Shown: positions 11,903-62,727, counted from the stretch's first letter. The stretch: 64,000 bases of DNA from Escherichia coli (GCF_046105845.1 NZ_CP151004.1), one strand, 5' to 3'. Made by a program: numbers and translations. Notes: generated by a model from the sequence alone, not told the origin.

Positions 11903-11903
11903 A

Positions 11904-12677: not shown

Positions 12678-12685
12678 TTCCTTCT

Positions 12686-12707
12686 GCCGCCCGCTATCCG
12701 GGGCGGC
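12686..12707 (+). terminator. GC-rich hairpin downstream of yaiO (candidate terminator, no U-tract)
   Basis: GCCGCCC-loop-GGGCGGC immediately after the yaiO stop. Confidence 0.3.
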
Positions 12708-12787
12708 CTTCCCTGCCGATTAGCCCCACCCCCTTTCCTCTTTGTTTTCCGACCACATTCACCGGATAAATTTTATTCTCCAGTGTT

Positions 12788-12840
12788 ATATACTATAGGG
12801 GGGTATGTATTGACATATAGAATACCCCCCTATAGTATAT
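12788..12840 (+). promoter_or_regulatory. frmRAB promoter-operator: two 19-bp inverted arms with G6/C6 tracts (CsoR/RcnR-family FrmR site type) flanking a TTGACA -35
   Basis: ATATACTATAGGGGGGTAT (12788-12806) and ATACCCCCCTATAGTATAT (12822-12840) are exact reverse complements; TTGACA at 12810-12815; frmR ATG at 12865. Confidence 0.7.
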
Positions 12841-12864
12841 TGCATGCAGATGATGAGGTGCGAA

Positions 12865-13140
12865 ATGCCCAGTACTCCGGAAGAGAAGAAAAAGGTCCTT
12901 ACTCGAGTTCGTCGTATTCGGGGGCAAATTGATGCTCTGGAACGGTCGCTGGAGGGTGATGCCGAATGCCGTGCCATACTCCAACAGATCGCTGCCGTTC
13001 GGGGCGCGGCTAACGGGCTGATGGCAGAAGTGCTTGAAAGCCATATCCGGGAAACGTTTGACCGAAATGACTGCTACAGCCGCGAAGTCAGCCAATCCGT
13101 TGACGACACTATTGAACTGGTTCGTGCCTATCTTAAATAG
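12865..13140 (+). CDS. frmR: Formaldehyde-responsive repressor FrmR (CsoR/RcnR family)
   Basis: 91 aa from ATG at 12865 ([31 protein letters not shown]...) preceded by GAGG; track ORF starts 21 nt earlier. Confidence 0.93.
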
Positions 13141-13144
13141 CTGA

Positions 13145-14284
<1,140 letters not shown>

Positions 14285-35762: not shown

Positions 35763-37011
35763 TGTTAGCCTCCACATGCGTCATTGCTGCTGTCGTTTTG
35801 CGATTCAAAATCGGGTTAAGGATCAGATAGCTCAGCGCGCCACCTAATACCGCGTTGACCGGAACAATACCCGGTAACCAGTGGCCTGCGGCAATCCCCA
35901 GCGCGACCGCCAGAATCGCCACCCAATTGACACTCATCATACGCGTGGTCGCAAAGTGCTCATAGCGGCGACGGTTCATCAGATAGTCAGCGATGATCAC
36001 GCCCCCTACCGGAGGAATAGCTGCCGAAAGGAAGGTCAGCCAGCCGACAAAATTGTTATACAGCCATAATGCGCAGACCGTACCGATAATACCGTTGATT
36101 ACCGAAAGGGTTTTGCTCGACATACCAGTAATGTTGGCGAAACCTAAGCCCGACGCATAGAGCGCGTTATCGTTGGTGGTCCAGATATTCAGCCCCAGCA
36201 CCACAATCGCAGGCAGCAGCAGACCCTGAGCAATCATCACATCAGAGATATCCGCCATCCCCAGTGCCGCCGCGCCCGCTGCACCGAAAATAAACATCAA
36301 CGAGTTGCCGAGGAAAAAGGCCACCATCGCCACCAGCACCGCCAGTTTGGCATTACGACCAAACCGGACAAAGTCAGCGGTGAGCGTGCCCGCACTGATA
36401 AATGACCCCACAACCAGCGCCAGCGCGACATTGAAATCTAACGGTTGTGCGGGAACGACCGCTTTTAATGCGTCCAGGCCGCCCATGCCGTTAACGGCCA
36501 ACCACACGGAATAACCGCCAAGACAGGCGATAGCCGGAACTGCAATCACCGAAAGAACCATCAGCGCCGAAATGCCAAAGAAGACGGTGACGGTCATCAG
36601 TAAACCGGAGACGGCAATCAGCAAATTAATATCCAGCCCGGTTGCCTTGCCCACCGGAATGGCAAACATCGCCACGCCAACGCCAAACCAGCCAACCTGG
36701 GTGCCGCCCAGCAGCAGTGAAGGCAGCCATGAGCCTTTAACACCAAAAGAGAAGCGAGCAAGAAGATGAGTGGTCAGGCCGGTTTTTGCGCCAATGTAAC
36801 CAAGAAATGAAGTGTAAATACCGAGGAGAAGATTACCGATGAGGACTGCGAGGAAGAAATCATGATAGCTAAGACCGGTTCCGAGAGTGCCGCCGGTCCA
36901 CATACTGGCGGAAAAGAAGGTTAATCCCAGCATGACGAACGTCAATGCCAATACCCCTTTCCGCGCCGACTGCGGGACTGGCCCTTGGCTAAAGTTGTTA
37001 TCTTGCGACAC
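35752..37011 (-). CDS. codB: Cytosine permease (NCS1 family)
   Basis: 419 aa; GTG start with G-rich SD; 11-nt overlap with codA. Confidence 0.94.
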
Positions 37012-48650: not shown

Positions 48651-49607
48651 TTAAACCACCCGATCCAGCCCCAACATGCCGCGAGCCTGAATGAAACAGA
48701 GCAGCAACGTTCCCCATAAGGCCATCGTCAGGTAGGGACTTATACCGAGAATATTGAAGCCGCTTTCAATAATTTGCAGAAGAAACAGCGCCAGCACCAT
48801 ACCAATTATCCGCCCGCTGCCGCCGTCCGGATTAACCCCGCCGAGTACTGCCGCGAGGATTGACACCAGCAAGTACGATTCGCCATAAGAGGCCTTAGCC
48901 GAGTTGAGTTTCGACATCATCAAAAATGCCGCTACCGCACAAAGCAAGGCGGAAATGACATACACCCATATCAGCACCCGACGAGTGTTAATACCGGAGT
49001 AAAGTGTTGCTCGTTCGTTAGAACCAATCAGATAAATGGATTTACCGAGCGGCGTTTTCTCCAGCAATATCCACAGCCCCAGCGCCACTGCGGCAAACAA
49101 CCACATCGGTAGCGGAATACCGAACCATTGCGCATGATTCAACCACAGCACCCATGAGGGATAATTGGCAATGGCGCTACCACCTGTCACCAGAATATTT
49201 ATCCCTTTGAGCAACGTCATCATCCCAAGCGTTGCAAGAATTGGCGACACTCGAATACCAGCAATCAATACGCCGTTACATAAACCGATTATCACCGCCG
49301 CGCCAGCGCCCGCCAGTAACGTAGCGACAACCGTAGCAATACCCGGTGGATACTGAGTCGCCACCCACGCCATCACCAGTGAACAGGCGTTAGCAGTGGC
49401 AATAATTGACAAGTTAATGCCACCGCAAAGCATGGTCACCGCCATAGCCAACGCCAGAATGCCCAGCACGGGCATTTGCGAAGCGACGGACTGGAAATTA
49501 CTTATCGACCAGAAAATCTCCGGCATAGTAATGCTGAACGCGGCAACCGTTAGCACCAGCAGGCCGATCAAGTAAAACTCAACGTTATTACGCCACGATT
49601 TTTTCAT
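48651..49607 (-). CDS. Sugar-type ABC transporter permease (second of two)
   Basis: Polytopic membrane protein; ATG 49607 overlaps the stop of the upstream permease (ATGA). Confidence 0.8.
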   Translation of the reverse strand: MKKSWRNNVEFYLIGLLVLTVAAFSITMPEIFWSISNFQSVASQMPVLGILALAMAVTMLCGGINLSIIATANACSLVMAWVATQYPPGIATVVATLLAGAGAAVIIGLCNGVLIAGIRVSPILATLGMMTLLKGINILVTGGSAIANYPSWVLWLNHAQWFGIPLPMWLFAAVALGLWILLEKTPLGKSIYLIGSNERATLYSGINTRRVLIWVYVISALLCAVAAFLMMSKLNSAKASYGESYLLVSILAAVLGGVNPDGGSGRIIGMVLALFLLQIIESGFNILGISPYLTMALWGTLLLCFIQARGMLGLDRVV

Positions 49608-50575
49608 AGCAGACTCCGGTTCTGATGCTGACTCCACGCCGTGGCGCTAATGCTGGCAACGATGATGATGCCTGTGATCAATGTTTGCCAGTAAGACGAG
49701 ACTCCCAATAAATTTAGCCCGTTTTGCATCACTGCCAACAACACCACGCCGAGCAAAGTACCGGTTAACGTGCCGCGCCCGCCGAGCAAACTAGTGCCGC
49801 CAAGCACCACCGCAGCCAGTACTGTCAGCTCATAACCCAGAAGAGAATCGGGGGCGACAGTCATCACCGTCCACGACTGCACTACACCCGCAGCGCCAGA
49901 CATCAATCCCATATAGCCATAGACGAAAAGTTGCAGTTTCAGCACGCTAAAGCCGATGCGACTGGCTGATTCACGATTCCCGCCAAGGGCATAAATTTTG
50001 CGCCCTACACTGGTGAAATTCATGATAAACGCTGTCAGCAGCACCACCGTAATCATGGCGATCAGCGGCAGACCAAGGCCATAGTCATAGCCGTCAGCAT
50101 CGGTGTACTTGAACAACATTATCCCCTGCTCAAACCACGGCGGAAAGTCGTACAGCCACACACCTTTACTCAACCATAACAGCAGGCCATAGAAAATATT
50201 CAGCGTCGAAATGGTGATGATGATAGACGGCACCCGTAGGCGATTAACCAGTAAGGCGTTTATTAAGCCAAGTAAAATGCCGATGCCGCCCGCCAGGGCA
50301 AACGCGACAGCAAAGTTGCCACCAATTTTTTGCAGCAACAGCACCATGCCGTATTGCGCAATGATGGTCATTGCCGGAAACGAAATATCAATCCCACCGG
50401 AAATTAACACCACAAACAAACCACAGGCGAGAATAGTCAACATGGCATAGTTATTGGCGAGATCGTACAAATTACCGAATGTCAGAAACTCGTCGCTGCG
50501 CCAGGCAAGGCCGACAAACAGCCCCACAATCAGTAATGCCAGCCAGAATTCATGGCGTTTTTTCAGTTCAGCCAT
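49604..50575 (-). CDS. Sugar-type ABC transporter permease (first of two)
   Basis: 323-aa polytopic membrane protein; start overlaps the ATPase stop. Confidence 0.8.
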   Translation of the reverse strand: MAELKKRHEFWLALLIVGLFVGLAWRSDEFLTFGNLYDLANNYAMLTILACGLFVVLISGGIDISFPAMTIIAQYGMVLLLQKIGGNFAVAFALAGGIGILLGLINALLVNRLRVPSIIITISTLNIFYGLLLWLSKGVWLYDFPPWFEQGIMLFKYTDADGYDYGLGLPLIAMITVVLLTAFIMNFTSVGRKIYALGGNRESASRIGFSVLKLQLFVYGYMGLMSGAAGVVQSWTVMTVAPDSLLGYELTVLAAVVLGGTSLLGGRGTLTGTLLGVVLLAVMQNGLNLLGVSSYWQTLITGIIIVASISATAWSQHQNRSLL

Positions 50576-52052
50576 TTACCACCTCCGCAATTCTGGCCTG
50601 AGAACTGCTGTCAGGCAGGAAGCTATGGGTGATCTGACCTTTTTGCATTACCAAAATCCGGTGGCTTTGATACCACGCTTCTTCAATTTCATCGCAGATC
50701 ATCAATACCGCAATGCCATGAGCCGCCAGATCGCTGATAATGCCGTATATTCCTGCTTTGTTGGCGATATCAACACCGACTGTCGGGCTATCGAGAATCA
50801 ACAGTCGTGGCCCAATCGCCAGCCATTTGGCGATCGATACTCGCTGCGCGTTACCCCCGGAAAGCGTATTCACCGGGAGATGTGGGTCAGAGACTTTGAT
50901 GGTCAATGCCTTGATTAGCCTGTCCACCAGGTCACGCACTTTAGCTTCACTCAGAAAGCCGAAGCGATCTTTTACCTTGTGAAAAACAGTGCTAATGATG
51001 TTGTCTTCAATAGATTGCGCCATCACCAAACCGCGCGACATGCGATCTTCCGAAACATAACCAATACCGTGGCGGATGGCGTCCTGGTTACTATGCAGTG
51101 TAACCGGCTGACCGTTGATGAGGATCTCACCAGCATCCGGTCGGGTCATACCAAACAGACTCAGACATAATTCCGTGCGCCCCGCACCAAGCAGGCCAAC
51201 AATCGACACCACTTCGCCCGCTTCCACCCGCAAGTTAATATTTTGATATTCCCCCTGACGACTTAAATTACGCACCTCCAGCACCCGGGTGCTGGATTTT
51301 CCCTGCCACAACTCTCGCACCTGATATTCAAACTCCTGGCCGGTCATCAGGAAACCGAGTTGTTTTGTGGTCATCTCTGCAGCCGGAAAGGTCCCGACCA
51401 GCTCACCATCTTTCAACACTGAAATACGGTCGGAAACTTCCATCACTTCTTCCAGACGATGACTGACGAAGACCACGCAGATCCCGCGTTCCCGCAATTG
51501 ATGCACCACCTGTAATAACCCTTGCACTTCCTGATGGGTCAGCGAAGCGGTGGGTTCATCCATCACGATCAACCGTGCGTCCTGCGCCAGTGCACGGCAA
51601 ATTGCCACCAGCTGACAGCGGGCAATTGAAAGCTCAGAAACGAGCGTATCCAGTGGCAATGTGACGTTAATACTGGTCATTGCCGCCTGCGCCACCTCAC
51701 GCAGACGACGGCGGTTAACAAACAGACCGTGGTGATAGTGATTCACGGCGATATTCTCCCAGACACTCAGGTTAGGAAATAAAGAGAGGTCCTGATAAAT
51801 CACCTGAATCCCCTGCGCCACCGAAGCGGCGGGTGTCAGCTTTGACCAGTTTTTCCCACCAAGCGTAATTTCCGCCCCCTCATCCGGGCGATAAACACCG
51901 GACATAATTTTAATCAACGTCGATTTACCACAGCCGTTTTGCCCGGCAAGGCAGTGCACCTCACCCGACATAAAGTCGAGAGAAACATCGCGCAGCGCTC
52001 GCGTGGCATGAAACGTTTTGTTGATATGACGAAGGGAAAGGAAGGTTTCCAT
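50568..52052 (-). CDS. Sugar-type ABC transporter ATP-binding protein with duplicated nucleotide-binding domains
   Basis: Walker A GQNGCGKST in the first half and LSGGNAQR signature in the second; two-NBD architecture typical of ribose/AI-2-type importers; ATG 52052 preferred over the TTG at 52067. Confidence 0.85.
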   Translation of the reverse strand: METFLSLRHINKTFHATRALRDVSLDFMSGEVHCLAGQNGCGKSTLIKIMSGVYRPDEGAEITLGGKNWSKLTPAASVAQGIQVIYQDLSLFPNLSVWENIAVNHYHHGLFVNRRRLREVAQAAMTSINVTLPLDTLVSELSIARCQLVAICRALAQDARLIVMDEPTASLTHQEVQGLLQVVHQLRERGICVVFVSHRLEEVMEVSDRISVLKDGELVGTFPAAEMTTKQLGFLMTGQEFEYQVRELWQGKSSTRVLEVRNLSRQGEYQNINLRVEAGEVVSIVGLLGAGRTELCLSLFGMTRPDAGEILINGQPVTLHSNQDAIRHGIGYVSEDRMSRGLVMAQSIEDNIISTVFHKVKDRFGFLSEAKVRDLVDRLIKALTIKVSDPHLPVNTLSGGNAQRVSIAKWLAIGPRLLILDSPTVGVDIANKAGIYGIISDLAAHGIAVLMICDEIEEAWYQSHRILVMQKGQITHSFLPDSSSQARIAEVVNG

Positions 52053-52074
52053 AGCATCCCCTGGCAATAAGAAT

Positions 52075-52090
52075 CGGGGCTTTCGCCCCG
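52075..52090 (-). other. Perfect hairpin between the binding-protein and ATPase genes
   Basis: CGGGGC-TTTC-GCCCCG. Confidence 0.4.
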
Positions 52091-52100
52091 AAGAAATGGA

Positions 52101-53087
52101 TTAATAAAGTGAGTCGATATTGTCTTTGTTGACCAGTAATACCTTATGGAAACGGATAATTCGCTTATCCATATCTACGTCGGCCTTACCGAGATTCTCC
52201 ATTTCTAATCCAGGTTTGATCTCTTCACCCTTCAGCAACGTGCTGGCGACGGCCGCGAGTGCGTAACCTGCAGAGGCCGGATCGTAAGTAATCCCTTCAG
52301 TGATATCACCACTTTTAATCAGTGATGCCGCCTGTGAAGGGATCATCATGCCATAGACTGCGACTTTATTTTTCGCCCGTTTCTCTTTCACTGCACGTCC
52401 CGCGCCAATCGGACCGTTTGAACCAAAGGAGACAACCGCTTTCAAGTCAGGATAGGTTTTCATCAGGTCCAGTGTGGTTCGACGTGAGTCATCCACACTC
52501 TCGGCAACCGGCATGCGGCGGGTAACTTCATGCATATCCGGGTAATGCTCTTTCTGGTATTTCACCAGCAAGTCAGCCCATAAGTTATGCTGCGGCACGG
52601 TCAAACTACCCACGTAAATCACATAGCCGCCCTTGCCACCCATGCGTTTCGCCATATGCTCAACATATTCAGCGGCAAATTTTTCGTTATCAATGATTTC
52701 GATATCCCAGTTAGCACTTGGCTGACCGGGGGATTCGTTGGTCAGAACCACAATTCCGGCATCTCGCGCTTTTTTGAATACCGGTTCCAGCACGTTGGCA
52801 TCGTTTGGCACAATTGTAATTGCATTAACCTTACGGGCGATTAAATCCTCAATGATTTTAACCTGTTGCGGAGCATCAGTACTTGAAGGCCCCACCTGTG
52901 ACGCATTAACACCAAAGGCTTTACCCGCCTCGACCACACCTTCGCCCATGCGATTAAACCAAGGCATACCATCGACTTTAGAGATATTCACCACGACTTT
53001 TTCCGCTGCCTGGAGCGGCGCAGAAATTAGCGCAGCGCCTAATAACAGCGAAGACACCATATTGATAACAAAACGTTTATTCATCAT
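52101..53087 (-). CDS. Periplasmic substrate-binding protein (type 1 sugar-binding fold, RbsB/LsrB-like)
   Basis: 328 aa; signal peptide ending LQAAEK; GAGG RBS; C-terminal ...KVLLVNKDNIDSLY resembles the LsrB C-terminus as I recall it. Confidence 0.8.
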   Translation of the reverse strand: MMNKRFVINMVSSLLLGAALISAPLQAAEKVVVNISKVDGMPWFNRMGEGVVEAGKAFGVNASQVGPSSTDAPQQVKIIEDLIARKVNAITIVPNDANVLEPVFKKARDAGIVVLTNESPGQPSANWDIEIIDNEKFAAEYVEHMAKRMGGKGGYVIYVGSLTVPQHNLWADLLVKYQKEHYPDMHEVTRRMPVAESVDDSRRTTLDLMKTYPDLKAVVSFGSNGPIGAGRAVKEKRAKNKVAVYGMMIPSQAASLIKSGDITEGITYDPASAGYALAAVASTLLKGEEIKPGLEMENLGKADVDMDKRIIRFHKVLLVNKDNIDSLY

Positions 53088-53244
53088 TTCAGCCTCATTG
53101 CAGGGTAGTCAGGAAGTGTTCGCCCAAATTAGCGCGCTGGAGAGAATAAGAATTTTCGAATATTTTTATGCAGAATAAACAGCCCTATTTCAGGCAGCTA
53201 TTAAAAATTTGGTTATAAATATGGACAAAACGGGCAGAAACAAT

Positions 53245-53266
53245 AAGTGTGACAATCATCACGTAA
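53245..53266 (-). promoter_or_regulatory. Candidate CRP site upstream of the ABC transporter operon
   Basis: AAGTGTGACAATCATCACGTAA (TGTGA-N6-TCACG), about 170 bp upstream of the binding-protein ATG. Confidence 0.5.
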
Positions 53267-53337
53267 AAAATAGCAAAATAAACAAAATTAGCGATACTTT
53301 ATGTTTGTGAGCTTATTTCGCGTAGAAAAATAGTTAT

Positions 53338-53748
53338 CTACACAACGTCAATAAGGGCATATTCTTCAAAGATAACGTCCATTTCGGGTGAATAGTATCC
53401 TTCTGCCTGGAAAAAACGACGGTGTTCATTACGCCAATATTCAAGACTGAGGTCACCTTCACCTTCCTTACGGGCAAGCTCCGCGGTGACATCAGAAAAG
53501 CGCAGTAAATGCAGGCCAATCACTCTGATAACACAGACAGGCTCACCACGGCTATTTTCTACAATCTTATACTCACCAATCATCGGAAATGCGTTGTCTT
53601 CAATACATCCCGCCAGCGAACCACAGGAAGCTGTTTTAACACCAGTCGCAATCAACGTTGCGAGGTGATCGGCCAACGCTGCTGAATCGCCAAAAGTACA
53701 AAAGGAAGCATGGGGATATTTTTGTGAGATTTTTTCTTTTATGGTCAT
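53338..53748 (-). CDS. Small ASCH-like domain protein (putative)
   Basis: 136 aa from ATG 53748 (MTIKEKISQKYP...); a G-x-K-T motif (GVKTASCG) and overall size resemble ASCH/YqfB-type proteins; weak RBS. Confidence 0.4.
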   Translation of the reverse strand: MTIKEKISQKYPHASFCTFGDSAALADHLATLIATGVKTASCGSLAGCIEDNAFPMIGEYKIVENSRGEPVCVIRVIGLHLLRFSDVTAELARKEGEGDLSLEYWRNEHRRFFQAEGYYSPEMDVIFEEYALIDVV

Positions 53749-54047
53749 GAGAATATTTTCGCGATTACGGAAAAACAAATCACATCTTAATTACTGTTGA
53801 TAACCATCAGCAAGAGTATCATTGGTTTTTCGATACTGAATCTTTTTTATCCGAAGCAGGTCACATTTATGGCCTGATAAATACCTTTGTTAAAACTCAC
53901 TTTTGTGTATTTCTCTCAAATAATCCCCTGGAAATTATGCCGGGAGATTATAAAGTTCAGGATCATTCATTAGCAAACCATTGCTGCCCCACTCCCTGGG
54001 GCTTTAAATCTCTTACGATTCACCATTGCAGGCGTTTCAAATGCGTA

Positions 54048-55430
54048 TCAACCTGCCACACTCCCCCACACCAGTTGTCCTTTATGGAACGTTGCCGTTC
54101 TCGGCGAGATACGCGCCACCGCCTCGGCGGAACAGGAGGCGTCCACCAGCACAAAACTGGCGTCATCCTGCGCTTTGGGCCACACGCGCTCGCCTTTTTC
54201 ATTCAGCGGCAATACATCGCCAGTGGCTAAAAACAGCGAACGGGACAAATTCTGTTCGTTAGGGCGAATATAGAGCTGCGCGTACAGATTGGCTTTTTCC
54301 AGCATGTCGCCCAGGCCGTAAGGTGACCAGTGGTCGATAACGCTGTCAGTTCCTGTCATGACTTTTACGCCTTTGTCGTGCAGTTGTTTGAGCGGCATAT
54401 GCAGCGTGCCAATCGGCACCGTCGAAGCGATAGAAATTTGCTGCGCCGCCATCCGGTGCGCCAGTTCATCTACCTGTTGTTCGTTGAGCGTTGCCAGCGC
54501 GAAGGCGTGGCTGATGGTCAGCTTGCCCTTCAGCTGTGGCGTTTTCTCTACCGTTTCAACCATATAGTTGATGGCTGCCACGCCTGCCGGAGTGGTTTCG
54601 TGCAGGTGAATATCGACGCCTTTGTCGTAGTCCAGCGCAATCTGGAACATGGTGTCGAGGGATTTTTCCATCGCGCCATCAACACTGGTTGGGTCCAGCC
54701 CGCCGACGTAATGCGCCCCCGCCTGCATCGCTTCGCGCATTAAGGGTTCTGATTTCGACAGCAGCAAACCGTGCTGCGGGAAGGCGACAATTTCACACTC
54801 GAAGCCCGCCTGACGTCGCGCCAGCACCGCCTGCAAATTTTGCAGATTTTTCAGGCCGGAAACCGGTTCGATATTGCAGTGGCTGCGGGCAATGGTAGTG
54901 CCTTTCGACTGCAATAAATCGATCAGTTTTTCCGCTCGTTCCTGAGTGTACGGTTGCAGCTCCGGCAGCATTTTCTGCTCGAGTTTGATCATGTCCTGGA
55001 TGGTGGTGCCTGCCGGGCGATTGAGCGAGCGCCACGGCCCGCCGTAAAAGGTTTTGTCGAGATGAATATGCATGTCACGGGTGGTGGGCAGCATCAGCTT
55101 ACCGCCAGCGTCATAGTGCGGCAGCGTGGCGTCCGGATGCTGCTTGTTCTCGCGCAGGGCAACAATTTTGCCGTTCTGAATCTCTACGGTCTGGTGCGCC
55201 GTGCGGGTCTGTACCGCCACGCCATTTTCGTAGTCAAAACCGGTTTCCAGCAGCACGTTGTCGAGATAGTAGTGCGGGTCAGTGATTTTCATGGTGTTAT
55301 TCGCGTCGCAGTGGGTTGTGCCAGAGACTGCCGCATGGGCGAGCGGCACAGAGGTACCAAACAGCGCGGCGGCGGTGACCATCTTACCGCTCTGGCTCAG
55401 AAACTCACGGCGGCTATTGTTTTTTTTCAT
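54048..55430 (-). CDS. yahJ: Tat-exported amidohydrolase-superfamily deaminase-like protein
   Basis: 460 aa; twin-arginine signal MKKNNSRREFLSQSGKMVTAAALFGTSVPLAHA; metal-dependent amidohydrolase HxH motif (MHIHLD). Confidence 0.9.
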   Translation of the reverse strand: MKKNNSRREFLSQSGKMVTAAALFGTSVPLAHAAVSGTTHCDANNTMKITDPHYYLDNVLLETGFDYENGVAVQTRTAHQTVEIQNGKIVALRENKQHPDATLPHYDAGGKLMLPTTRDMHIHLDKTFYGGPWRSLNRPAGTTIQDMIKLEQKMLPELQPYTQERAEKLIDLLQSKGTTIARSHCNIEPVSGLKNLQNLQAVLARRQAGFECEIVAFPQHGLLLSKSEPLMREAMQAGAHYVGGLDPTSVDGAMEKSLDTMFQIALDYDKGVDIHLHETTPAGVAAINYMVETVEKTPQLKGKLTISHAFALATLNEQQVDELAHRMAAQQISIASTVPIGTLHMPLKQLHDKGVKVMTGTDSVIDHWSPYGLGDMLEKANLYAQLYIRPNEQNLSRSLFLATGDVLPLNEKGERVWPKAQDDASFVLVDASCSAEAVARISPRTATFHKGQLVWGSVAG

Positions 55431-55439
55431 CTTACGTCC

Positions 55440-56390
55440 TTACGTTTTAATAATATGGGTGCCCGTTTCGCCACGCAGCGCCGCGGGCAGGCATTCCGGC
55501 GTGGTGATAATCACTTCTTTACCGCCCTGTTCCAGGAACGTCAGGCTGGCGATGATTTTTGGCAACATGCTGCCAGGCGGAAAATGCCCTTCCTGCATAT
55601 AGCGGGTCATGGTGGCAATATCCACCCGATCCAGCGCCTGCTGCTGCGGTTTGCCAAAGTGAATACACACTTTTTCGACGCCGGTGGTGATCACCAGAAT
55701 GTCGGCGTGAATTTCACGGGCCAATAGCGCGGTAGAGAGATCTTTGTCGATAACCGCGTCCACACTTTGGTAATCTCCCGCTTCGGTGCGCACCACAGGA
55801 ATTCCGCCGCCGCCCGCGCCAATCACCACAAAGCCTTGTTGGATCAGCGCCTTAATGGCCGGTGCTTCGACAATACGTTTCGGTTCCGGCGAGGCGACCA
55901 CGCGGCGATAGCCCCGTCCGGCATCTTCAACAAAACGCCAGTCAGGGTTTGCCTTTTGTAATTCGTCACGCTGGCTTTCACTAAAGAATGCGCCGATGGG
56001 CTTGGTGGGATGGGCAAACCCCGGATCGTTTTTATCCACTTCCACCTGAGTCACCACGGTGACGGCTTTTTTCTCGCCGTGACGCGCCAGTCGGTTATTC
56101 AGCGCCTGTTGGATCAGATAGCCAATGCCGCCTTGCGTATCCGCCACACAGTTCGCCAGCGGCGTTAAGGGCAGCCCTTCGCGCTCGTGGGCTATCTCCG
56201 CGCGGCGTAAATCCAGACCGACCTGCGGCCCGTTGCCGTGGGTCAGCACAATGTCGTAATCGGAAGCCAGCATTTCCAGCACCGTATCGGCCACGGCTTT
56301 CACCGCCTCCGCCTGATGCTCAATCGACTGGCTGGCGTTATCTTTGATAATGCTGTTGCCACCAATGGCAACGACCACAAGTTCTTTCAT
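55440..56390 (-). CDS. yahI: Carbamate kinase-like protein
   Basis: 316 aa from ATG 56390 (MKELVVVAIGGNSI...THGNGPQVG); amino-acid kinase fold. Confidence 0.9.
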   Translation of the reverse strand: MKELVVVAIGGNSIIKDNASQSIEHQAEAVKAVADTVLEMLASDYDIVLTHGNGPQVGLDLRRAEIAHEREGLPLTPLANCVADTQGGIGYLIQQALNNRLARHGEKKAVTVVTQVEVDKNDPGFAHPTKPIGAFFSESQRDELQKANPDWRFVEDAGRGYRRVVASPEPKRIVEAPAIKALIQQGFVVIGAGGGGIPVVRTEAGDYQSVDAVIDKDLSTALLAREIHADILVITTGVEKVCIHFGKPQQQALDRVDIATMTRYMQEGHFPPGSMLPKIIASLTFLEQGGKEVIITTPECLPAALRGETGTHIIKT

Positions 56391-56484
56391 GTTGTTATGT
56401 CCGCTACAGAGGGTGATGGGGTTATGAGAGTGAGGTTGCCCCTCTCCCCAGAAGGGAGAAGGGATCGTAAGGTGCGTTTGCAGG

Positions 56485-57903
56485 TCAGACGCCGTAACGT
56501 TCGCACCAGCCAAGAATGGCTTTTTCGAAGCAGGCGAATGGTGGATGCACAATGCCCGCGCCAATCATGCCGACGCCCGCATCTTTATGGGCGATGGCGG
56601 TGTTGATCACTGGCAGAATGCCGCTACTGCCCACGCGGGTGATGTCGATTGCCGACGGCACGCCCATAAAACCGAGCAGCGGAATGGTGACGTTGGGGTT
56701 TTCACCGAGAGTGATTTCACGCATCTGGCGGGAGAAATCGATAGCCTCTTCCACCGTGCCGCCCACCAGCGCAACGATTGCAGGCGCGGTCGCCATGGCA
56801 AATCCGCCAATGCCGTAGGTTTCAGTGATGGCGCTGTCGCCGATATCCAGCCCCGAATCTTCCGGCTTATAACCGGCAAACATCGGCCCGATCACCTGCT
56901 GCGCCGGACCGGTAAACCATTGCCCCGGTAATCCGCTGACCCGCAGGCCGAACTCGACGCCGTTACGCGCCATGGTGGTCACCACAGTGCTGTATTCGAT
57001 GCCGTGCGCCGCATCCATCGCCGCTTTACACATCGCCATCCACGTCGGGCCGGAGAAGTAGTCACTGCTGGCGACAAACTCAAACACTTCGCGCTGTTGC
57101 TCGACGGAGTAGCCCGCCTGAATAATCCCCGGCGTCAGCGCCTGAATCAGCAGCGTCGTCCCGGCGTTATTGCGGTTATGGCACTCATCGCCCATATGCA
57201 GCGCCTGCGCCAGCATTAAGCGCAGATCGATCTCGCCGATAATTTTCATCGCATCGCGCAGCATGGGCCCCTGCACATCGCGCATCCAGTTGAGGCGGTC
57301 GATCACGCTCTGGTCGTTAGCGCCCATACGCAAAATCTTCGCCATCTGCTCGCTCATATTGGTGTAAGCGATGTTGCCGTAGGTTTTGTTTTTCACGATG
57401 TGCATAAACATCGAGGCCGAGGTAACACCCGCCATCGATCCCACACAGTCGTGTTCATGGCACGGCGAGAAGGTGATCTCCCCGGAGGCCGCCAGGTCAG
57501 CCGCCTCGTCGAGATCTTTCGCCAGCCCTTCGAACACCAGCGCCCCGGTGACCGCGCCTTTCATTGCGCCGCACATTTTTTCCCAGGTCACTGGCGGCCC
57601 GGCGTGAAGAATGGTTTTCGGCGTCATTCCCGGCACCACGTTAATCGCCTGATCAAAACCAATCAGCACCGGATGCGACTGGATAATGCGCTCCAGCGCC
57701 TGCTGGTTAGCGGCGGCGATTTTGTCCGCCAGCGGGGAATCGGCAATGTTGTCCAGCGCCTGCACCACCTGCATATTGCCCTGCCCCGGCGGCGTCCAGT
57801 CGAGTTGAGTCACTTCTACATGCTGCTTTTTCAGGTCATCGCTAAACATGGCGATGCCGACGTTAATAACGTTCAATGGTTGGCTAAACAGTGACTGGCT
57901 CAT
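56485..57903 (-). CDS. yahG: DUF1116-family protein (YlbE paralog)
   Basis: 472 aa; start overlaps the yahF stop. Confidence 0.88.
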   Translation of the reverse strand: MSQSLFSQPLNVINVGIAMFSDDLKKQHVEVTQLDWTPPGQGNMQVVQALDNIADSPLADKIAAANQQALERIIQSHPVLIGFDQAINVVPGMTPKTILHAGPPVTWEKMCGAMKGAVTGALVFEGLAKDLDEAADLAASGEITFSPCHEHDCVGSMAGVTSASMFMHIVKNKTYGNIAYTNMSEQMAKILRMGANDQSVIDRLNWMRDVQGPMLRDAMKIIGEIDLRLMLAQALHMGDECHNRNNAGTTLLIQALTPGIIQAGYSVEQQREVFEFVASSDYFSGPTWMAMCKAAMDAAHGIEYSTVVTTMARNGVEFGLRVSGLPGQWFTGPAQQVIGPMFAGYKPEDSGLDIGDSAITETYGIGGFAMATAPAIVALVGGTVEEAIDFSRQMREITLGENPNVTIPLLGFMGVPSAIDITRVGSSGILPVINTAIAHKDAGVGMIGAGIVHPPFACFEKAILGWCERYGV

Positions 57904-59450
57904 CAGGCTTCCTCCCCTTTGCAGATAAATTCACGCGCCAGCAATCCGGTATTGGTGCTACTGCTGGCCAGAGTCACTCCGGCATCAAGCAGCATCTGGC
58001 TTTGTTGTTCTAATGATGGCGTATCAAGATCGGTACCCAGCACATAGGCGAGAATGATCAACTCACGTCCTTCGGCAGCGGCGATCGCTTTCGCCTCTTT
58101 GATCGCCTCGATGGTGGAACCGACCGGATCTTCATGCGATCCAAATCCGAGCACAAAATCCATCACGATCACCGCCACTTCTGGATCGCGCGCCTCTTCG
58201 ATCAAGCGGCTGATACGGTTGGTCGGGTCAATCATTGGATGCGGCTTGCCGTTGGTGAAGTCGTCATCGCCAAAGTCGAGGAAGGTGTGTTTGATGCTGC
58301 GGTTGATATCTTGCAGGCGGAATTCAGGATCGGGCTGAATATTGCTGTAGACATCGCCATGTTTTTCCATCACCGCGAACATGGTTTCGTCACACAGCGT
58401 ACCGCCGCAGAACAGGCCACGAATGTATTTCTGCTGCGGTTGCAGGCGAGCGCGCACGTCAGCAATCAACGACTGGTTCAGCGTATGCAGCTCGAGATGT
58501 TCCTGTTTCACGCCGGAGAGCATCACCGCTTTCAATGCCGCCTCTTTACTGCCGCGGGCAAACTGTAGCCCCTGCTCATCCACTGGCGTTTCGCCACGAC
58601 CGAGGAAGCAGACCACCACCGGCTTGCGGCAGGCACGTGCGCGTTCCAGCACTTTGCGGGCCACCGCAGGCGCAGGCGGTTTGGAGATAAGCACAATGAT
58701 TTCAGTTTGCGGATCGTTTTCCAGCATCCCGATGGCGTCGAGCATCATCAGGCCGCCGATTTTCTCGCTCAGGTCGCGCCCGCCGGTGCCAATCAGTTGC
58801 GAAACGCCGCCGCCAAATTCATGGATACGGACGCTCAGCTCCTGGCTGCCGGTGCCAGATGCGCCAACAATACCGATGTTGCCGCGACGCACGGCGTTAC
58901 CAAAGCAGAGCGCCGCGCCGTTGATAATCGCCGTGCCGCAGTCTGGCCCCATCATCAGCAGCCCTTTTTCGTGGGCCAGTTGTTTGAGCGCCAGTTCATC
59001 TTCAACTGAGACGTTATCGGAAAACAGCATCACGTTAAGATCGTTTTGCAGTGCCTGACGCGCTTCGCGAGCAGCAAACAGACCGTTGACCGAAATCACC
59101 GCCAGGTTACTTTCCGGGATATGCTTTTTGGCGCTGGCAATAGTGGCGTAACGCGCCTCGTGCGAGCCGCTTTGCGCTTTGGTGTTGAACAGTTCTTCAA
59201 TCTCCACCAGCAACTGCTCGTTGTCTGCGCCCGCTTTGCCGTTAATGACAATCATCAGGTCGCCGTTTTTCGCCTGCTCCAGCTCCGGCGTCAGCAGCCC
59301 TAAATTCTTCAGTACGCCTTTGTTCATTTCGGTCGCCATCGCCACAAATGCCTGCTCGACGCCGTCGAGTTTATTTGCACGCGTGGAGATAGACATCAGC
59401 GAGACAGAATCAAAATAGGTATTCGGTTTAATGACTATTTTAACTGACAT
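57903..59450 (-). CDS. yahF: FdrA-like protein (succinyl-CoA-synthetase-alpha-like CoA-binding fold)
   Basis: 515 aa; GGAGGG RBS. Confidence 0.88.
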   Translation of the reverse strand: MSVKIVIKPNTYFDSVSLMSISTRANKLDGVEQAFVAMATEMNKGVLKNLGLLTPELEQAKNGDLMIVINGKAGADNEQLLVEIEELFNTKAQSGSHEARYATIASAKKHIPESNLAVISVNGLFAAREARQALQNDLNVMLFSDNVSVEDELALKQLAHEKGLLMMGPDCGTAIINGAALCFGNAVRRGNIGIVGASGTGSQELSVRIHEFGGGVSQLIGTGGRDLSEKIGGLMMLDAIGMLENDPQTEIIVLISKPPAPAVARKVLERARACRKPVVVCFLGRGETPVDEQGLQFARGSKEAALKAVMLSGVKQEHLELHTLNQSLIADVRARLQPQQKYIRGLFCGGTLCDETMFAVMEKHGDVYSNIQPDPEFRLQDINRSIKHTFLDFGDDDFTNGKPHPMIDPTNRISRLIEEARDPEVAVIVMDFVLGFGSHEDPVGSTIEAIKEAKAIAAAEGRELIILAYVLGTDLDTPSLEQQSQMLLDAGVTLASSSTNTGLLAREFICKGEEA

Positions 59451-60303
59451 AATTCCCTCCGTAGGTTTGGCTCAGCGCACAACCATCGGCCATGCCATAC
59501 AGCATGTCGCAGCCGGAACTGGAGCCAATATGTTTAATTTTTTCTATTGCCTGAGTTGCGTTCCCAGGGATGTCATAAATAATGTTATGAATAAAACGAT
59601 GAATATTTTCCCGGCAGCGTTGTTGTAATGCGGCTTCCAGCGTTATGGCACTTAATAACGTGGTATTATTTCTGCCGCGTTGCAGACCGAGATAAAATTC
59701 CTCTTTGTATTTTTCCGCCGGATGTCCGGAAATAAATAAAATAAGCGCCAGACCTGTTAAATAATCGTCGGCTGATGGCGTAAGGCCAATCCCTAAGCCC
59801 ATCATACTGGCGACTGCTGAGGCGATATTTTGTTTATCGTTTACGGCCTGAATAACTGCCCGTCGTTTAATATGTAATTCTTTATTTAACGCCTGATAAA
59901 ACGGATTATCGCCGCAATAATTAAACAGGGTTTCATTTTCCCCCAGGTGCTGATGAATAATGTCATGCCACTGTTGCCAGGCGATAAGGTGAAAATTCAC
60001 AGCGGTCATTTGCAAGGTTGGGGACAGCCAACGCCGACAACGACTCATCTCTATATGAAGATGTTGACCAACCGTAATGCCTTGATCGTCAAACTGAACC
60101 TTATCACCATGCCGGAACAGACCATCAAAGTGAGTGAGTGCCAACCGACAACTGTTTGGCGCATTGTCATACTCTTCACAAAGCAGCGTCAGCAACTGCT
60201 GGCGGGCCGGAAGTGCGATATTTACCGCTCTGGCAAAGACCTGTTCAACCTGTCCTTGCCCCCGCTGTGCCAGAAAATCCGCATCCGCAGTTAGCGCCCA
60301 CAC
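59440..60303 (-). CDS. yahE: Uncharacterised protein YahE (YlbF-like)
   Basis: 287 aa; GTG start; 11-nt overlap with yahF. Confidence 0.8.
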   Translation of the reverse strand: MWALTADADFLAQRGQGQVEQVFARAVNIALPARQQLLTLLCEEYDNAPNSCRLALTHFDGLFRHGDKVQFDDQGITVGQHLHIEMSRCRRWLSPTLQMTAVNFHLIAWQQWHDIIHQHLGENETLFNYCGDNPFYQALNKELHIKRRAVIQAVNDKQNIASAVASMMGLGIGLTPSADDYLTGLALILFISGHPAEKYKEEFYLGLQRGRNNTTLLSAITLEAALQQRCRENIHRFIHNIIYDIPGNATQAIEKIKHIGSSSGCDMLYGMADGCALSQTYGGNYVS

Positions 60304-60342
60304 ACACCGTCTTTCTGGTGTGTTGATAGCAAGCCTCCCGGT

Positions 60343-60948
60343 TTATGCACCTGCGGCAATCAGTAACTGTGCAATCTCTTCAAAGCCTCGTTCCCGCGCC
60401 AGTTCCAGCGGCGTTTTGCCATATTTATCCGTCATGTGCGGGCTGGCACCGTGTTCCAGCAATAACTGGACAATCGCCTGCTGTTTAATCCCGCCATCAT
60501 TAAGCACAATTGCTTCCAGTAGCGGCGTCCAGCCAACATGGTTGGTCTGGTTAACGTTAATCTCCGTATGCGCCAAAAGCTCTTTTACAATACTTAAATG
60601 GCCTTTTTCACAGGCAGGCGTCAGGCCGACACCGCCAAAACGGGTGACGCAATTAAGATCAGGTTTAGCCGGTAAAATAATCCGTAACAGGGTTAAATCG
60701 CCGGTCAGGCAGCTAATTAAAAAAGGATTTGAACATATTTGATCTTGCTTATTAATATCCGCTCCGGCATCAATTAATGCCTGAACGCAAGCATATTGCT
60801 GATATAAACTTGCCAGCGTAATTGCCGTTTTCCCCTGACGATCGCAGGTATTAATATCGACACCCAGCGCAAGGCATGTTTTTACTTTATCGATATCACC
60901 CTGTTGCGCAGCCAATAAATAGTCGGCAGGTAGATTTTTTATAGTCAT
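60343..60948 (-). CDS. yahD: Ankyrin-repeat protein
   Basis: 201 aa with repeated ankyrin-like units (e.g. GKTAITLASLYQQYACVQALIDAGADIN, GWTPLLEAIVLNDGGIKQQAIVQLLLEHGASPH). Confidence 0.88.
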   Translation of the reverse strand: MTIKNLPADYLLAAQQGDIDKVKTCLALGVDINTCDRQGKTAITLASLYQQYACVQALIDAGADINKQDQICSNPFLISCLTGDLTLLRIILPAKPDLNCVTRFGGVGLTPACEKGHLSIVKELLAHTEINVNQTNHVGWTPLLEAIVLNDGGIKQQAIVQLLLEHGASPHMTDKYGKTPLELARERGFEEIAQLLIAAGA

Positions 60949-61053
60949 TCACATTCCCCTGGTTTTTGTGGCTGTTTTCGATGAATTGAGAATAGCAACG
61001 ATAATCTGATAAAAGAACCCGCTTAAATTTAATTCGCCGTATTTCGCCTTTTT

Positions 61054-61070
61054 GTTGAATGATGTTCAAC
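61054..61070. promoter_or_regulatory. Perfect palindrome GTTGAA-N5-TTCAAC in the yahD-yahC divergent region
   Basis: Seen directly; candidate regulator site. Confidence 0.3.
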
Positions 61071-61205
61071 AATCTTTTCGCAGTGTGCGGTAGTGCAATA
61101 TTTGTTTCTTTGACCCGATACCCTTTCACTCAATCAGGTTTTATTTCTCTATAGTCTGCACATGTAAGAGTAGCTTTCGTCCATGTCTAACCAGAGGGGA
61201 ACAAG

Positions 61206-61703
61206 ATGAACGGACTCACGGCAACGGGTGTCACCGTCGGTATTTGTGCAGGGCTTTGGCAGTTAGTGTCTTCACATGTCGGGCTCTCTCAGGGATGGGA
61301 ATTATTAGGAACTATTGGCTTCGTCGCCTTTTGCAGTTTTTATGCCGTAGGCGGCGGTAAATCGGGGTTTATCAGAAGCCTGGCGGTTAATTATTCTGGG
61401 ATGGTGTGGGCGTTTTTCGCCGCGCTGGCTGCCGGTTGGCTGGCCTCGGTGAGTGGATTGTCCACGTTCTGGGCGAGCGTGATTATGACTGTACCCTTCT
61501 CGGCGGTGGTGGTCTGGCAAGGACGTTTCGGTTTATTGTCTTTTATTCCCGGAGGCTTTCTCGGCATGACGCTATTTTTTGCCAGCGGGATGAACTGGAC
61601 GGTGACATTACTGGGTTTTCTGGCGGGTAACTGCGTGGGGATAATTTCAGAATATGGCGGACAAAAATTAAGCGAAGCGACGACTAAACGCGACGGGTAT
61701 TAA
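61206..61703 (+). CDS. yahC: Inner-membrane protein YahC
   Basis: 165 aa with four predicted TM helices. Confidence 0.85.
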   Translation: MNGLTATGVTVGICAGLWQLVSSHVGLSQGWELLGTIGFVAFCSFYAVGGGKSGFIRSLAVNYSGMVWAFFAALAAGWLASVSGLSTFWASVIMTVPFSAVVVWQGRFGLLSFIPGGFLGMTLFFASGMNWTVTLLGFLAGNCVGIISEYGGQKLSEATTKRDGY

Positions 61704-61794
61704 AAGTTATTCAAAAATGATTATCTATCTTTAACCGATACCTCTACAGTCATGGCTGGAGAAATTCATATTCGATAATGGCGGGAATGGTTTA

Positions 61795-62727
61795 ATGAAC
61801 TCAATTTTTACCGAAGAGAATCTGTTGGCATTTACTACCGCTGCGCGTTTTGGCAGCTTCAGTAAAGCCGCAGAAGAGTTGGGTTTAACCACTTCCGCCA
61901 TTAGCTACACCATCAAGCGAATGGAAACAGGGCTGGATGTGGTGCTGTTCACTCGCAGTACCCGAAGCATTGAGTTAACGGAGTCCGGGCGTTATTTTTT
62001 CCGCAAAGCTACCGACCTGCTGAATGATTTTCACGCCATCAAACGCAGCATCGATACTATTTCGCAGGGTATAGAAGCACGGGTGCGCATTTGTATTAAC
62101 CAACTGCTTTATACGCCCAAACACACCGCACGCTTATTACAGGTACTGAAAAAGCAGTTTCCAACCTGCCAGATTACCGTGACGACCGAAGTGTATAACG
62201 GCGTCTGGGATGCGATTATTAATAATCAGGCGAATATTGCTATCGGCGCGCCCGACACACTGCTGGACGGCGGCGGCATTGATTACACGGAGATTGGCGC
62301 AATTCGCTGGGCTTTTGCTATCGCCCCGGATCACCCATTAGCCTTTGTGCCGGAGCCGATCGCCGAAAGCCAACTGCGTCTCTATCCTAATATCATGGTG
62401 GAGGACACCGCGCATACGATTAATAAAAAAGTGGGCTGGTTGCTGCATGGGCAGGAGTCGATTCTGGTGCCAGATTTCAACACCAAATGTCAGTGCCAGA
62501 TTTTAGGTGAAGGAATTGGTTTTTTGCCGGATTACATGGTCCGTGAGGCGATGGCGCAATCCCTGCTGGTTACCCGACAAATCCATAATCCGCGCCAGGA
62601 TTCACGCATGTTACTCGCAACTCAGCATTCTGCTACGGGTCAGGTGACGCAGTGGATTAAAAAACAATTTTCGCCAAATGGCATATTAACGGGGATCTAT
62701 CAGGATTTACTGCATCGGGAGAATTAA
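61795..62727 (+). CDS. yahB: LysR-family transcriptional regulator
   Basis: 310 aa; N-terminal HTH (FSKAAEELGLTTSAISYTIKRME). Confidence 0.9.
   Translation: MNSIFTEENLLAFTTAARFGSFSKAAEELGLTTSAISYTIKRMETGLDVVLFTRSTRSIELTESGRYFFRKATDLLNDFHAIKRSIDTISQGIEARVRICINQLLYTPKHTARLLQVLKKQFPTCQITVTTEVYNGVWDAIINNQANIAIGAPDTLLDGGGIDYTEIGAIRWAFAIAPDHPLAFVPEPIAESQLRLYPNIMVEDTAHTINKKVGWLLHGQESILVPDFNTKCQCQILGEGIGFLPDYMVREAMAQSLLVTRQIHNPRQDSRMLLATQHSATGQVTQWIKKQFSPNGILTGIYQDLLHREN

Follow-up and report, generated by a model that had tools for sequence, protein, structure and literature searches.

The stretch of Escherichia coli DNA analysed here (64,000 nucleotides, referred to below as the window) contains, on its minus strand at positions 54048-60303, the genes yahJ, yahI, yahG, yahF and yahE, a cluster whose products are related to those of the oxamate-forming genes of the allantoin (all) region and which may form part of a catabolic operon yielding carbamoyl phosphate. 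All five open reading frames (ORFs) are intact and located as given in a preliminary description of the window. The gene yahE (59440..60303) encodes an AllH-family (DUF2877) subunit of 287 aa; yahF (57903..59450) an AllF/FdrA-family subunit of 515 aa with HMA-like N-terminal, CoA-binding and CoA-ligase-like domains; yahG (56485..57903) an AllG-family (DUF1116) subunit of 472 aa with an N-terminal extension of about 57 residues; yahI (55440..56390) a carbamate kinase paralogue of 316 aa; and yahJ (54048..55430) a predicted deaminase of the amidohydrolase superfamily, 460 aa long, with a twin-arginine translocation (Tat) signal peptide at about 55332-55430. A longer TTG-start ORF extends yahI up to 56564, and the RefSeq start in a 99%-identical strain is the ATG at 56390. 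Gene junctions are operon-like, with overlaps of 11 bp between yahE and yahF and of 1 bp between yahF and yahG and a spacing of 9 bp between yahI and yahJ; the sole sizeable gap between yahE and yahJ is one of 94 bp (56391..56484, minus strand) between yahG and yahI, described below as an empty transporter slot.

The genes listed in the preliminary description stand, yet the boundary it drew around them is too narrow, since the functional unit also takes in yahD and the divergent yahB. The first gene of the operon is yahD (60343..60948, minus strand), encoding an ankyrin-repeat protein of 201 aa recognised by ankyrin profiles, and yahB (61795..62727, plus strand) encodes a LysR-type regulator whose best NCBIfam match is AllS. 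Membership of yahC (61206..61703, plus strand), which encodes a small DUF1097 membrane protein, is uncertain. The stretch is ordinary E. coli chromosome: the cluster is flanked by betT/pdeL on one side and yahK on the other and has its own divergent LysR gene, yahB. Used as a query, the 6.3-kb cluster matched 5112 of the 5426 complete E. coli genomes, 5016 of which have 80% or more of it. The best genome match is 99.0% identical, the RefSeq labels there being yahE, fdrA (that is, yahF), yahG, yahI and yahJ; the whole stretch recurs at 99% identity or more in one genome of the 5426. Promoter and terminator scans of positions 53000-62000 returned fewer sites than in shuffled sequence.

Relatedness to the all genes was assessed by protein against protein BLASTP, with the K-12 allantoin-region proteins as references. 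YahF is 39% identical to FdrA (AllF) over 513 aa (E 3e-103), YahG 45% identical to YlbE (AllG) over 415 aa (E 2e-119) and YahE 25% identical to YlbF (AllH) over 273 aa (E 1e-10), in agreement with the homologies claimed for these three proteins. YahI shares 38% identity with YbcF (AllK; E 1e-57), as proposed for a carbamate kinase paralogue, and YahB 38% identity with AllS over its full length of 290 aa (E 4e-73). Judging by these alignments, five genes of the yah locus (F, G, E, I and B) are counterparts of genes in the all locus. Profile searches matched every family concerned (FdrA, DUF1116, DUF2877 and carbamate kinase). The former DUFs are now named AllG and AllH in Pfam and both are matched by yah proteins, AllG (PF06545) by YahG at 6e-89 and AllH (PF11392) by YahE at 3.6e-28, and YahF scores 492 bits against the NCBIfam FdrA subfamily (cut-off 433), its nearest solved structure being that of FdrA, 3DMY (6.5e-83). 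Genes for AllF-, AllG- and AllH-family subunits stand side by side in the yah cluster. The structure model of YahE is confident, and the structure search found no solved relative for it. YahI matches the carbamate kinase subfamily NF009007 over residues 1-316 with 649.9 bits (cut-off 266) and the arcC equivalog TIGR00746 with 347.7 bits, slightly below the cut-off of 358.25, and therefore represents a distinct carbamate kinase subfamily.

The all system itself, on which the preliminary description built its analogy, has experimental grounding. AllF, AllG and AllH have been purified and their oxamic transcarbamylase activity measured by Kim and Kim in 2024 (PMC11326118), the same authors having shown earlier that YbcF (AllK) is a catabolic carbamate kinase (PMC9843812), and allFGHK is directly activated by AllS and also by ArcA (Kim and Kim, PMC12535856). 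The yah genes are not mentioned in these three papers (PMC11326118, PMC9843812, PMC12535856). The paralogy between yah and all is not in itself a discovery, as family membership is already present in public annotation, some RefSeq records naming YahE an 'AllH family protein'.

A further trace of the relationship is found at the junction of the F and G genes. Residues 12-53 of YahG (window positions 57745-57870) match residues 513-554 of the C-terminal tail of AllF (E 3e-6), and this stretch of some 42 residues forms the YahG N-terminus throughout the yah-type operons and the C-terminal tail of AllF in the all operon. On this alignment the gene boundary is shifted, the segment having moved between the adjacent F and G subunit genes, as would be expected for two subunits that bind each other.

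In order to place the cluster among related loci, one genome per species was scanned with a YahG alignment, which confirmed at least 525 stretches among 600 candidates; locus counts given below refer to the best 80 of these at least 525 confirmed stretches, onto which the seed proteins were mapped, and 70 of the 80 have room on both sides and are treated as complete. The gene-neighbourhood comparison suggested in the preliminary description revealed a block conserved across phyla. With P denoting the permease, the order D-(E)-F-G-P-I-J with a divergent yahB is found in 51 of 70 loci, from Proteobacteria, and two loci have the same arrangement with an extra CDA deaminase gene upstream. The permease-less form, D-E-F-G-I-J divergent from B and C, accounts for 11 loci, from Escherichia, Klebsiella, Kluyvera, Raoultella, Citrobacter amalonaticus and Pseudocitrobacter. 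Three proteobacterial loci (Janthinobacterium, Herminiimonas and Pantoea) are devoid of yahJ and have the LysR gene upstream or downstream, and five are Firmicute and Bosea forms, four of them with PucR. The block shared by Klebsiella, Serratia and Pantoea runs ankyrin-E-F-G to carbamate kinase, in part followed by YahJ, with LysR divergent. Firmicute versions generally have PucR divergent from an ankyrin gene (in part of them), E, F, G, a transporter, carbamate kinase and a deaminase; in Brevibacillus the series is ankyrin, E, F, G, NCS1 transporter, carbamate kinase, CDA deaminase and permease, again with divergent PucR. In Janthinobacterium the order is ankyrin-E-F-G-permease-carbamate kinase-LysR, and in Bosea PucR is divergent from permease, ankyrin-TPR, E, F, G and carbamate kinase, with a YahJ-like amidohydrolase gene adjoining. 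A carbamate kinase gene is linked to the module in nearly all loci, and allantoin genes were not found at any of the 80.

Identities across these phyla are high. YahG of E. coli is 78% identical to its counterpart in Brevibacillus, 79% in Janthinobacterium and 72% in Bosea, versus 46% to AllG of the same genome; for YahF the corresponding values are 67%, 72% and 61%, versus 41% to AllF of the same genome. Because identity across phyla lies so far above that to the all paralogues, the yah type is, on sequence grounds, an old, separate and strongly constrained orthologous group. The label of paralogue given to these genes at the outset is thus correct as to homology but not as to closeness, the identity to the all paralogues being 41-46%. 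The yah-type G family is large, more than 7300 database proteins being matched at E<=1e-100, and includes a protein of solved structure, PDB 3CLQ, deposited as an 'uncharacterized protein' (E 2e-195). A recent duplication of allFGHK was considered as the origin of the cluster and rejected, given the cross-phylum identity of 61-79% against 41-46% to AllF and AllG of the same genome.

The ankyrin gene is a regular member of the module. YahD is 55-75% identical to its counterparts in Klebsiella, Serratia, Pantoea, Brevibacillus and Janthinobacterium, and all proteobacterial loci examined have yahD co-linear with the F and G genes. An ankyrin or ankyrin-TPR gene also occurs in most Firmicute loci, the ankyrin-TPR fusion taking the place of YahD in Bosea, Sporosarcina, Bacillus ndiopicus and Trichococcus, and the allFGHK operon lacks an ankyrin partner. 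As far as gene order and sequence tell, YahD is a conserved partner of the F/G enzyme. YahE is less constant: its gene is absent in 25 of the 80 loci (Enterobacter, Leclercia, Lelliottia, Silvania, Aeromonas cavernicola and one Serratia), where yahD and yahF are only about 110-150 bp apart, and an AllH-like sequence was not detected within 10 kb on either side of these 25 loci. The three-subunit analogy with AllFGH consequently holds for the homology of the subunits but not as a universal rule.

Two kinds of regulator gene accompany the module, those of PucR type and those for LysR proteins resembling AllS and PunR; the name of the PucR family comes from a regulator of purine catabolism. YahB scores best against AllS in NCBIfam (268 bits, below the equivalog cut-off of 372) and next best against PunR, and yahB adjoins the operon in 67 of the 70 complete loci. 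By analogy, YahB is likely to be an inducer-responsive local activator.

A transporter gene follows yahG in 58 of the 70 complete loci and encodes either a permease of 514-524 aa or an NCS1 transporter. Comparison of gene orders indicates that a transporter at this place is the rule and that E. coli is the exception, having lost the gene. In the window the yahG-yahI spacer is a clean 94 bp with no repeat block; in K-12 the gap is 421 bp and holds yahH/REP23, a region described previously (PMC4765031, PMC11551758). Serratia, Pantoea and the second E. coli copy described below have an extra membrane protein of 514-516 aa encoded between the G and kinase genes. The permease of the slot is 65-90% identical across Proteobacteria and Firmicutes and is labelled 'xanthine permease' or 'AGZA family permease' by public sources; no match to it was obtained in Pfam (even at E<=10), NCBIfam or PDB sequence searches. 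Its structure model (pLDDT 70) has a 7+7 inverted-repeat elevator fold, and Foldseek matched it to SVCT1, UraA and AZG1/2 with a TM-score of about 0.47. The Bacillales slot is occupied by an NCS1 transporter that most resembles allantoin permease (444 bits, short of the equivalog cut-off), and the Lactobacillales slot by a protein of 393-394 aa with about 10 hydrophobic segments, two copies of which (11198-12379 in locus L095 and 11485-12669 in locus L096) are 68% identical; this protein had no NCBIfam match and has no Pfam match on record. In Trichococcus a protein with three tandem Rid domains is encoded beside the slot protein. The yahC gene is confined to the permease-less loci (Escherichia, Klebsiella, Kluyvera, Raoultella, Citrobacter amalonaticus and Pseudocitrobacter) and never occurs together with the permease; it could encode a replacement carrier, or its occurrence could be a coincidence stemming from one ancestral rearrangement.

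The last gene of the operon encodes the deaminase candidate. The N-terminus of YahJ, MKKNNSRREFLSQSGKMVTAAALFGTSVPLAHA, is a canonical twin-arginine signal, with the motif SRREFL followed by a hydrophobic stretch and AHA at the AxA cleavage site. The twin arginine is present in 72 of 72 YahJ orthologues and the strict pattern [ST]RRx[FL][LIV] in 57 of them, which bears out the signal for the Tat export claimed from the sequence of the window. YahJ has moreover been listed as an E. coli Tat substrate, and a yahJ deletion mutant of extraintestinal pathogenic E. coli (ExPEC) was mildly outcompeted in mice, with a competitive index of 0.70 (PMC7549933).

YahJ belongs to the amidohydrolase subfamily NF005312 (716 bits, cut-off 447), its nearest solved structures being AtzC-type hydrolases (6NBO, 4e-44; 2QT3, 3e-30) and then cytosine deaminase. 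Aligned with the cytosine deaminase CodA, it has in common H121/H123, Q219, H275-x-x-E278, H308 and D362, that is, HxH after strand 1, the strand-4 Gln, HxxE after strand 5, the strand-6 His and the strand-8 Asp; H121, H123, H275, E278, H308 and D362 are invariant when CodA, the Bosea enzyme and a Serratia orthologue are compared. In the amidohydrolase superfamily HxH/Q/HxxE/H/D is the mononuclear deaminase signature, ring-opening hydantoinases and allantoinases having a binuclear site with a carboxylated lysine. Since the mononuclear signature is kept, YahJ is read as a periplasmic hydrolytic deaminase rather than a ring opener. It is nevertheless distinct from CodA and AtzC, with which it shares only 23-30% identity: Asp314 of CodA is Ser in YahJ, and YahJ has, besides the Tat signal, an extra N-terminal segment of about 45 residues. 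Its score against the cytosine deaminase equivalog NF005759 is 69.9 bits, far from the cut-off of 403, and those against the subfamily models PRK07572 and PRK09230 are 103 and 83 bits (cut-offs 438 and 483). CodA itself is encoded in the same window (34479-35762), as an in-window paralogue of YahJ, about 23-25% identical and with the same active-site residues; codA and codB, for cytosine deaminase and an NCS1 permease, occupy positions 34479-37011, 17 kb away.

The core of the module is accompanied almost everywhere by a deaminase, the kind of which differs between lineages. Gammaproteobacterial loci have the Tat-signal YahJ, the Trichococcus locus has two enzymes of the YahJ subfamily without a signal, and in Bosea an amidohydrolase of a sister subfamily adjoins the module. 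In Bacillales loci the corresponding enzyme is of 152 aa and has the CDA fold, its nearest solved relatives being B. subtilis guanine deaminase and plant guanosine deaminase. Deaminases of two unrelated folds take each other's place in the module, an argument for deamination as a required and integral part of the pathway.

As regards the state of the chromosomal copy, the ratio of nonsynonymous to synonymous substitutions (dN/dS) relative to K-12 is 0.02-0.13 for each gene from yahB to yahJ, with similar values relative to Klebsiella aerogenes, and the ORFs are intact in 5016 of the 5426 complete genomes. The E. coli genes are accordingly under purifying selection, and low dN/dS together with ORFs intact in over 90% of genomes argues against decay of the E. 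coli copy, despite the lost transporter. Ribosome footprints have been reported across the region in enterohaemorrhagic E. coli (EHEC) (PMC4765031). The synonymous divergence from K-12 is 0.06 for yahE and 0.15-0.20 for yahD, yahF, yahG, yahI, yahJ, yahB and yahC; as the value for yahE is far below those of its neighbours, the region seems to be a recombination mosaic.

A second, complete yah-type operon occurs on large E. coli plasmids, mostly conjugative or mobilizable, with LysR divergent from ankyrin-E-F-G-permease-carbamate kinase and without yahJ. At least 80% of the query formed by this plasmid operon is covered in 69 plasmid records, and an annotated example is NZ_CP025329.1 (positions 6270-13386 of locus L092), an IncFIA/FIB/FIC plasmid in which insertion sequence (IS) elements flank the operon. 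YahI of the plasmid copy is 94% identical to the chromosomal protein and YahE only 52-53%.

Taken together, gene order and homology lead us to favour, if by a modest degree, the view that yahB, with the divergent yahD-E-F-G-(empty slot)-I-J, represents in E. coli an ancient, cross-phylum catabolic operon, minus its transporter, which would yield carbamoyl phosphate and from it ATP. The proposal of the preliminary description, a second carbamoyl-phosphate-yielding module acting on a different ureide, is a reasonable one by homology and context. Right in outline and incomplete in boundaries and context, the earlier interpretation is thereby partly supported. In the scheme envisaged, YahJ would, judging from its sequence signatures, be exported folded via Tat and deaminate in the periplasm an amino- or imino-substituted N-heterocycle or an acyl-guanidine to a ureide (acyl-urea); in Firmicutes this step would fall to a cytoplasmic deaminase, either a guanine-deaminase-like CDA-fold enzyme or a signal-less member of the YahJ family. 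The gene order suggests that the product would then be imported by the transporter encoded after yahG, for which E. coli would need another carrier. By homology to AllFGH, YahF-YahG together with YahE and YahD would cleave the ureide with phosphate into carbamoyl phosphate and an amide or amine, and YahI, again by homology, would move the phosphate to ADP, giving ATP, NH3 and CO2. YahB, as a paralogue of AllS, would activate the operon in response to an inducer. The substrate is probably an amino-substituted heterocycle related to purines or pyrimidines, because deaminases of two unrelated folds and PucR/AllS-like regulators accompany the module. The slot transporters, namely the 7+7 fold permease and the NCS1 protein near allantoin permease, may be of nucleobase- or ureide-like type. 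Creatinine, guanine or xanthine, s-triazines, biuret or allophanate, and malonurate were each considered as the one substrate, and none was preferable on the evidence.

Several observations weigh against this scheme. Literature searches found no enzymatic, genetic or expression evidence for its steps. The operon lacks a ring-opening hydrolase, so that a ring would need to open by itself or through the action of the F/G enzyme, unless the substrate is linear. A periplasmic deaminase and a cytoplasmic enzyme need an importer between them, and this is what E. coli lost. As to the slot permease, Foldseek matched SLC26/BicA anion carriers equally well, such that the fold cannot tell nucleobase from anion carriers, and an hhalign comparison with one bona fide NCS2 protein gave a weak probability of 5%. 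Finally, YahJ is absent in Pantoea, Janthinobacterium and the plasmid copy, YahE in the 25 loci already mentioned, and a carbamate kinase gene near the module in Sporosarcina, Trichococcus and the organism of 3CLQ; with these components missing in some lineages, the four-step scheme is not invariant.

In a bolder version, which we hold to be doubtful, substrate-level phosphorylation by the module would amount to a 'deiminase pathway' of a third kind, whose starting compound would be a cyclic acyl-guanidine or amidine derived from the metabolism of purines, pyrimidines or compounds of the creatinine type. The deaminase would in that case turn this compound into a cyclic acyl-urea, which the F/G(/E) enzyme, assisted by the ankyrin protein, would open or cleave with phosphate. 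Carbamoyl phosphate, or an N-substituted form of it, would result, and from this YahI would form ATP. Creatinine, iminoallantoin or guanidinohydantoin, amino-s-triazines and bases resembling guanine or isocytosine would be among the candidate substrates.

Other explanations assign the cluster a different role, or none. YahEFG might be a second oxamic transcarbamylase, an oxalurate isozyme serving other conditions or another oxalurate source, as the same three protein families and an adjacent carbamate kinase would allow. Some of the data of Kim and Kim (PMC11326118) could be taken in this sense: an allFGH triple deletion strain regained 7% or 16% of wild-type oxamate formation with plasmid-borne allFG or allGH, respectively, and an allH deletion mutant kept 1.2 mM oxamate versus 17.7 mM in the wild type. 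YahE or YahF could be substituting for the missing All subunit in those strains, a reading that is ours and not that of Kim and Kim. However, oxamate is not formed by K-12 mutants deleted for allF or for allG, although yahEFG is intact in K-12 (PMC11326118), the identities of YahF and YahG (41-46% to AllF and AllG versus 61-79% across phyla) form the pattern of a distinct conserved specificity, and the yah type has an ankyrin protein, a deaminase, its own transporter and its own regulator, all lacking in the all type. Also, at none of the 80 loci do allantoin genes surround the yah cluster. On these grounds an isozyme for oxalurate is unlikely. We regard as equally improbable that the E. coli cluster is a cryptic, non-working remnant, with the transporter deleted and the K-12 gap filled by REP elements. 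The empty slot (94 bp here, 421 bp with yahH/REP in K-12) would fit such a history, as would the lack of any reported laboratory phenotype or inducing condition and the complete, permease-bearing copies on IncF plasmids of E. coli, as though the copy on the chromosome did not suffice. A remnant would hardly show a dN/dS of 0.02-0.13 for every gene or ORFs intact in 5016 of 5426 genomes, though, and the permease-less architecture is kept in six genera; the EHEC ribosome footprints (PMC4765031) and the competitive index of 0.70 of the yahJ mutant in mice (PMC7549933) likewise speak against it.

That the pathway runs in the synthetic direction, YahI supplying carbamoyl phosphate with which YahDEFG would carbamoylate an amide or a heteroaryl amine and in this way, for instance, build or alter a ureide, seems less probable again. 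Both reactions are reversible, and the kinetics of AllFGH were measured from carbamoyl phosphate and oxamate to oxalurate (PMC11326118), yet the context is catabolic throughout, with uptake-type transporters, deaminases, PucR-type or AllS-like regulators and no biosynthetic genes, and carbamate kinases of this sort are known from ATP-yielding pathways (PMC9843812). Least credible of all is the role implied by older annotation, in which YahF would be an acyl-CoA synthetase and the cluster would activate an organic acid. YahF does contain the domains CoA_binding and Ligase_CoA and weakly matches alpha subunits of succinyl-CoA synthetase, and its RefSeq name is still 'acyl-CoA synthetase FdrA'; against this, an ATP-grasp beta-subunit partner is lacking, the phosphohistidine of SucD aligns with a non-His residue in both YahF and AllF, AllF, from the same family, has been purified as part of a transcarbamylase (PMC11326118), and nearly every locus links the module to a carbamate kinase gene. 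A phosphohistidine like that of succinyl-CoA synthetase was looked for in YahF and is unsupported, the SucD His being aligned with a non-His residue in a region where the alignment is loose.

The favoured reading, a catabolic operon ending in carbamoyl phosphate and ATP, can be set beside systems already known. With AllFGH and AllK the yah module has in common the subunit families, the carbamate kinase and the LysR activator, genes tightly packed in one operon and, presumably, the chemistry, namely phosphorolysis of an acyl-urea to carbamoyl phosphate and on to ATP. It differs from allFGHK in gene order (E-F-G-I rather than F-G-H-K), in the added ankyrin protein, deaminase and dedicated transporter, in a YahE that is dispensable in many lineages and in the 40-50-residue AllF tail being located at the YahG N-terminus; the cluster furthermore lies outside the allantoin genes, and yah does not make up for AllFGH when allF or allG is deleted. 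Like the arginine deiminase (arcABCD) and agmatine deiminase pathways, the module would combine a hydrolytic deiminase converting a guanidino or amidine group to a ureido group, a transcarbamylase, a carbamate kinase and an operon-encoded transporter. Homology to those pathways is confined to the carbamate kinase: the transcarbamylase of the module belongs to the AllFGH type and not to the aspartate or ornithine transcarbamylase (ATCase/OTCase) fold, and the deaminase is of the amidohydrolase superfamily or the CDA fold, not a guanidino-group-modifying enzyme, and is predicted to be periplasmic in gammaproteobacteria. In the deaminase step the likeness is to CodA and to the N-isopropylammelide isopropylaminohydrolase AtzC, by way of the HxH, Q, HxxE, H and D residues common with CodA and the nearest structures of AtzC type.

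Related modules have been noted elsewhere. In nitrifiers, allFGHK stands beside biuret and triuret hydrolase genes (PMC12625717), and the ExPEC genomic region GR29 holds an F/G/carbamate-kinase module with CodB-like and RutB-like genes (PMC12928451). As in those cases, the FdrA/DUF1116/carbamate-kinase core of the yah module looks like a reusable cassette combined with varied upstream hydrolases and nucleobase-type transporters; the nitrifier and GR29 modules differ in their upstream enzymes, which are isochorismatase-like hydrolases in place of a YahJ-type deaminase, and have no reported ankyrin partner.

Between yahJ and yahK the window holds a 5.4-kb block (48651-53748) made up of a CUT2-type, sugar-like ABC importer (48651-53087), with a binding protein closest to rhamnose and autoinducer-2 (AI-2) binding proteins, and an ASCH-domain gene (53338-53748), the nearest solved structures of which, 1T62 and 3S9X, are both uncharacterised. 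One promoter-like site lies between yahJ and the ASCH gene. The block occurs in 2211 of 5426 (41%) complete E. coli genomes, including O157:H7, and is absent from K-12, where only remnant matches of about 70-270 bp are present. It was not found beside the yah cluster in any of the 80 loci of other species. The preliminary description was right about the position of the importer and the ASCH gene, but their belonging with the cluster was rejected, since the block never accompanies it in those loci; a functional link is not supported by these comparisons, although one is possible in E. coli specifically.

Full-text literature searches found no functional study of yahB, yahD, yahE, yahF, yahG, yahI, yahJ, DUF1116 or DUF2877, matches for yah genes being limited to lists of genomes, a survey of Tat substrates, y-ome tallies and a note on yahH from ribosome profiling. 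In E. coli K-12 the yahC-yahM stretch is one of the places where uncharacterised genes still cluster densely (PMC11551758). Thousands of genes of these families are still named 'acyl-CoA synthetase FdrA' or 'DUF1116', so the assignment also matters for annotation.

If the proposed function is correct, E. coli and several thousand other bacteria, including many gut and urinary-tract Enterobacterales and soil Bacillales, would have a further fermentative route to ATP and ammonia from a nitrogen-rich compound, by means of a type of transcarbamylase recognised only in 2024. On the bolder version, with a cyclic acyl-urea cleaved by phosphate, ring cleavage would yield ATP instead of consuming it, unlike in ATP-dependent hydantoinases. 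K-12 may show no phenotype because its copy is without the importer. The practical interest of such a route would lie in gut and urinary nitrogen metabolism, where the breakdown products of urate, creatinine and nucleobases are concerned.

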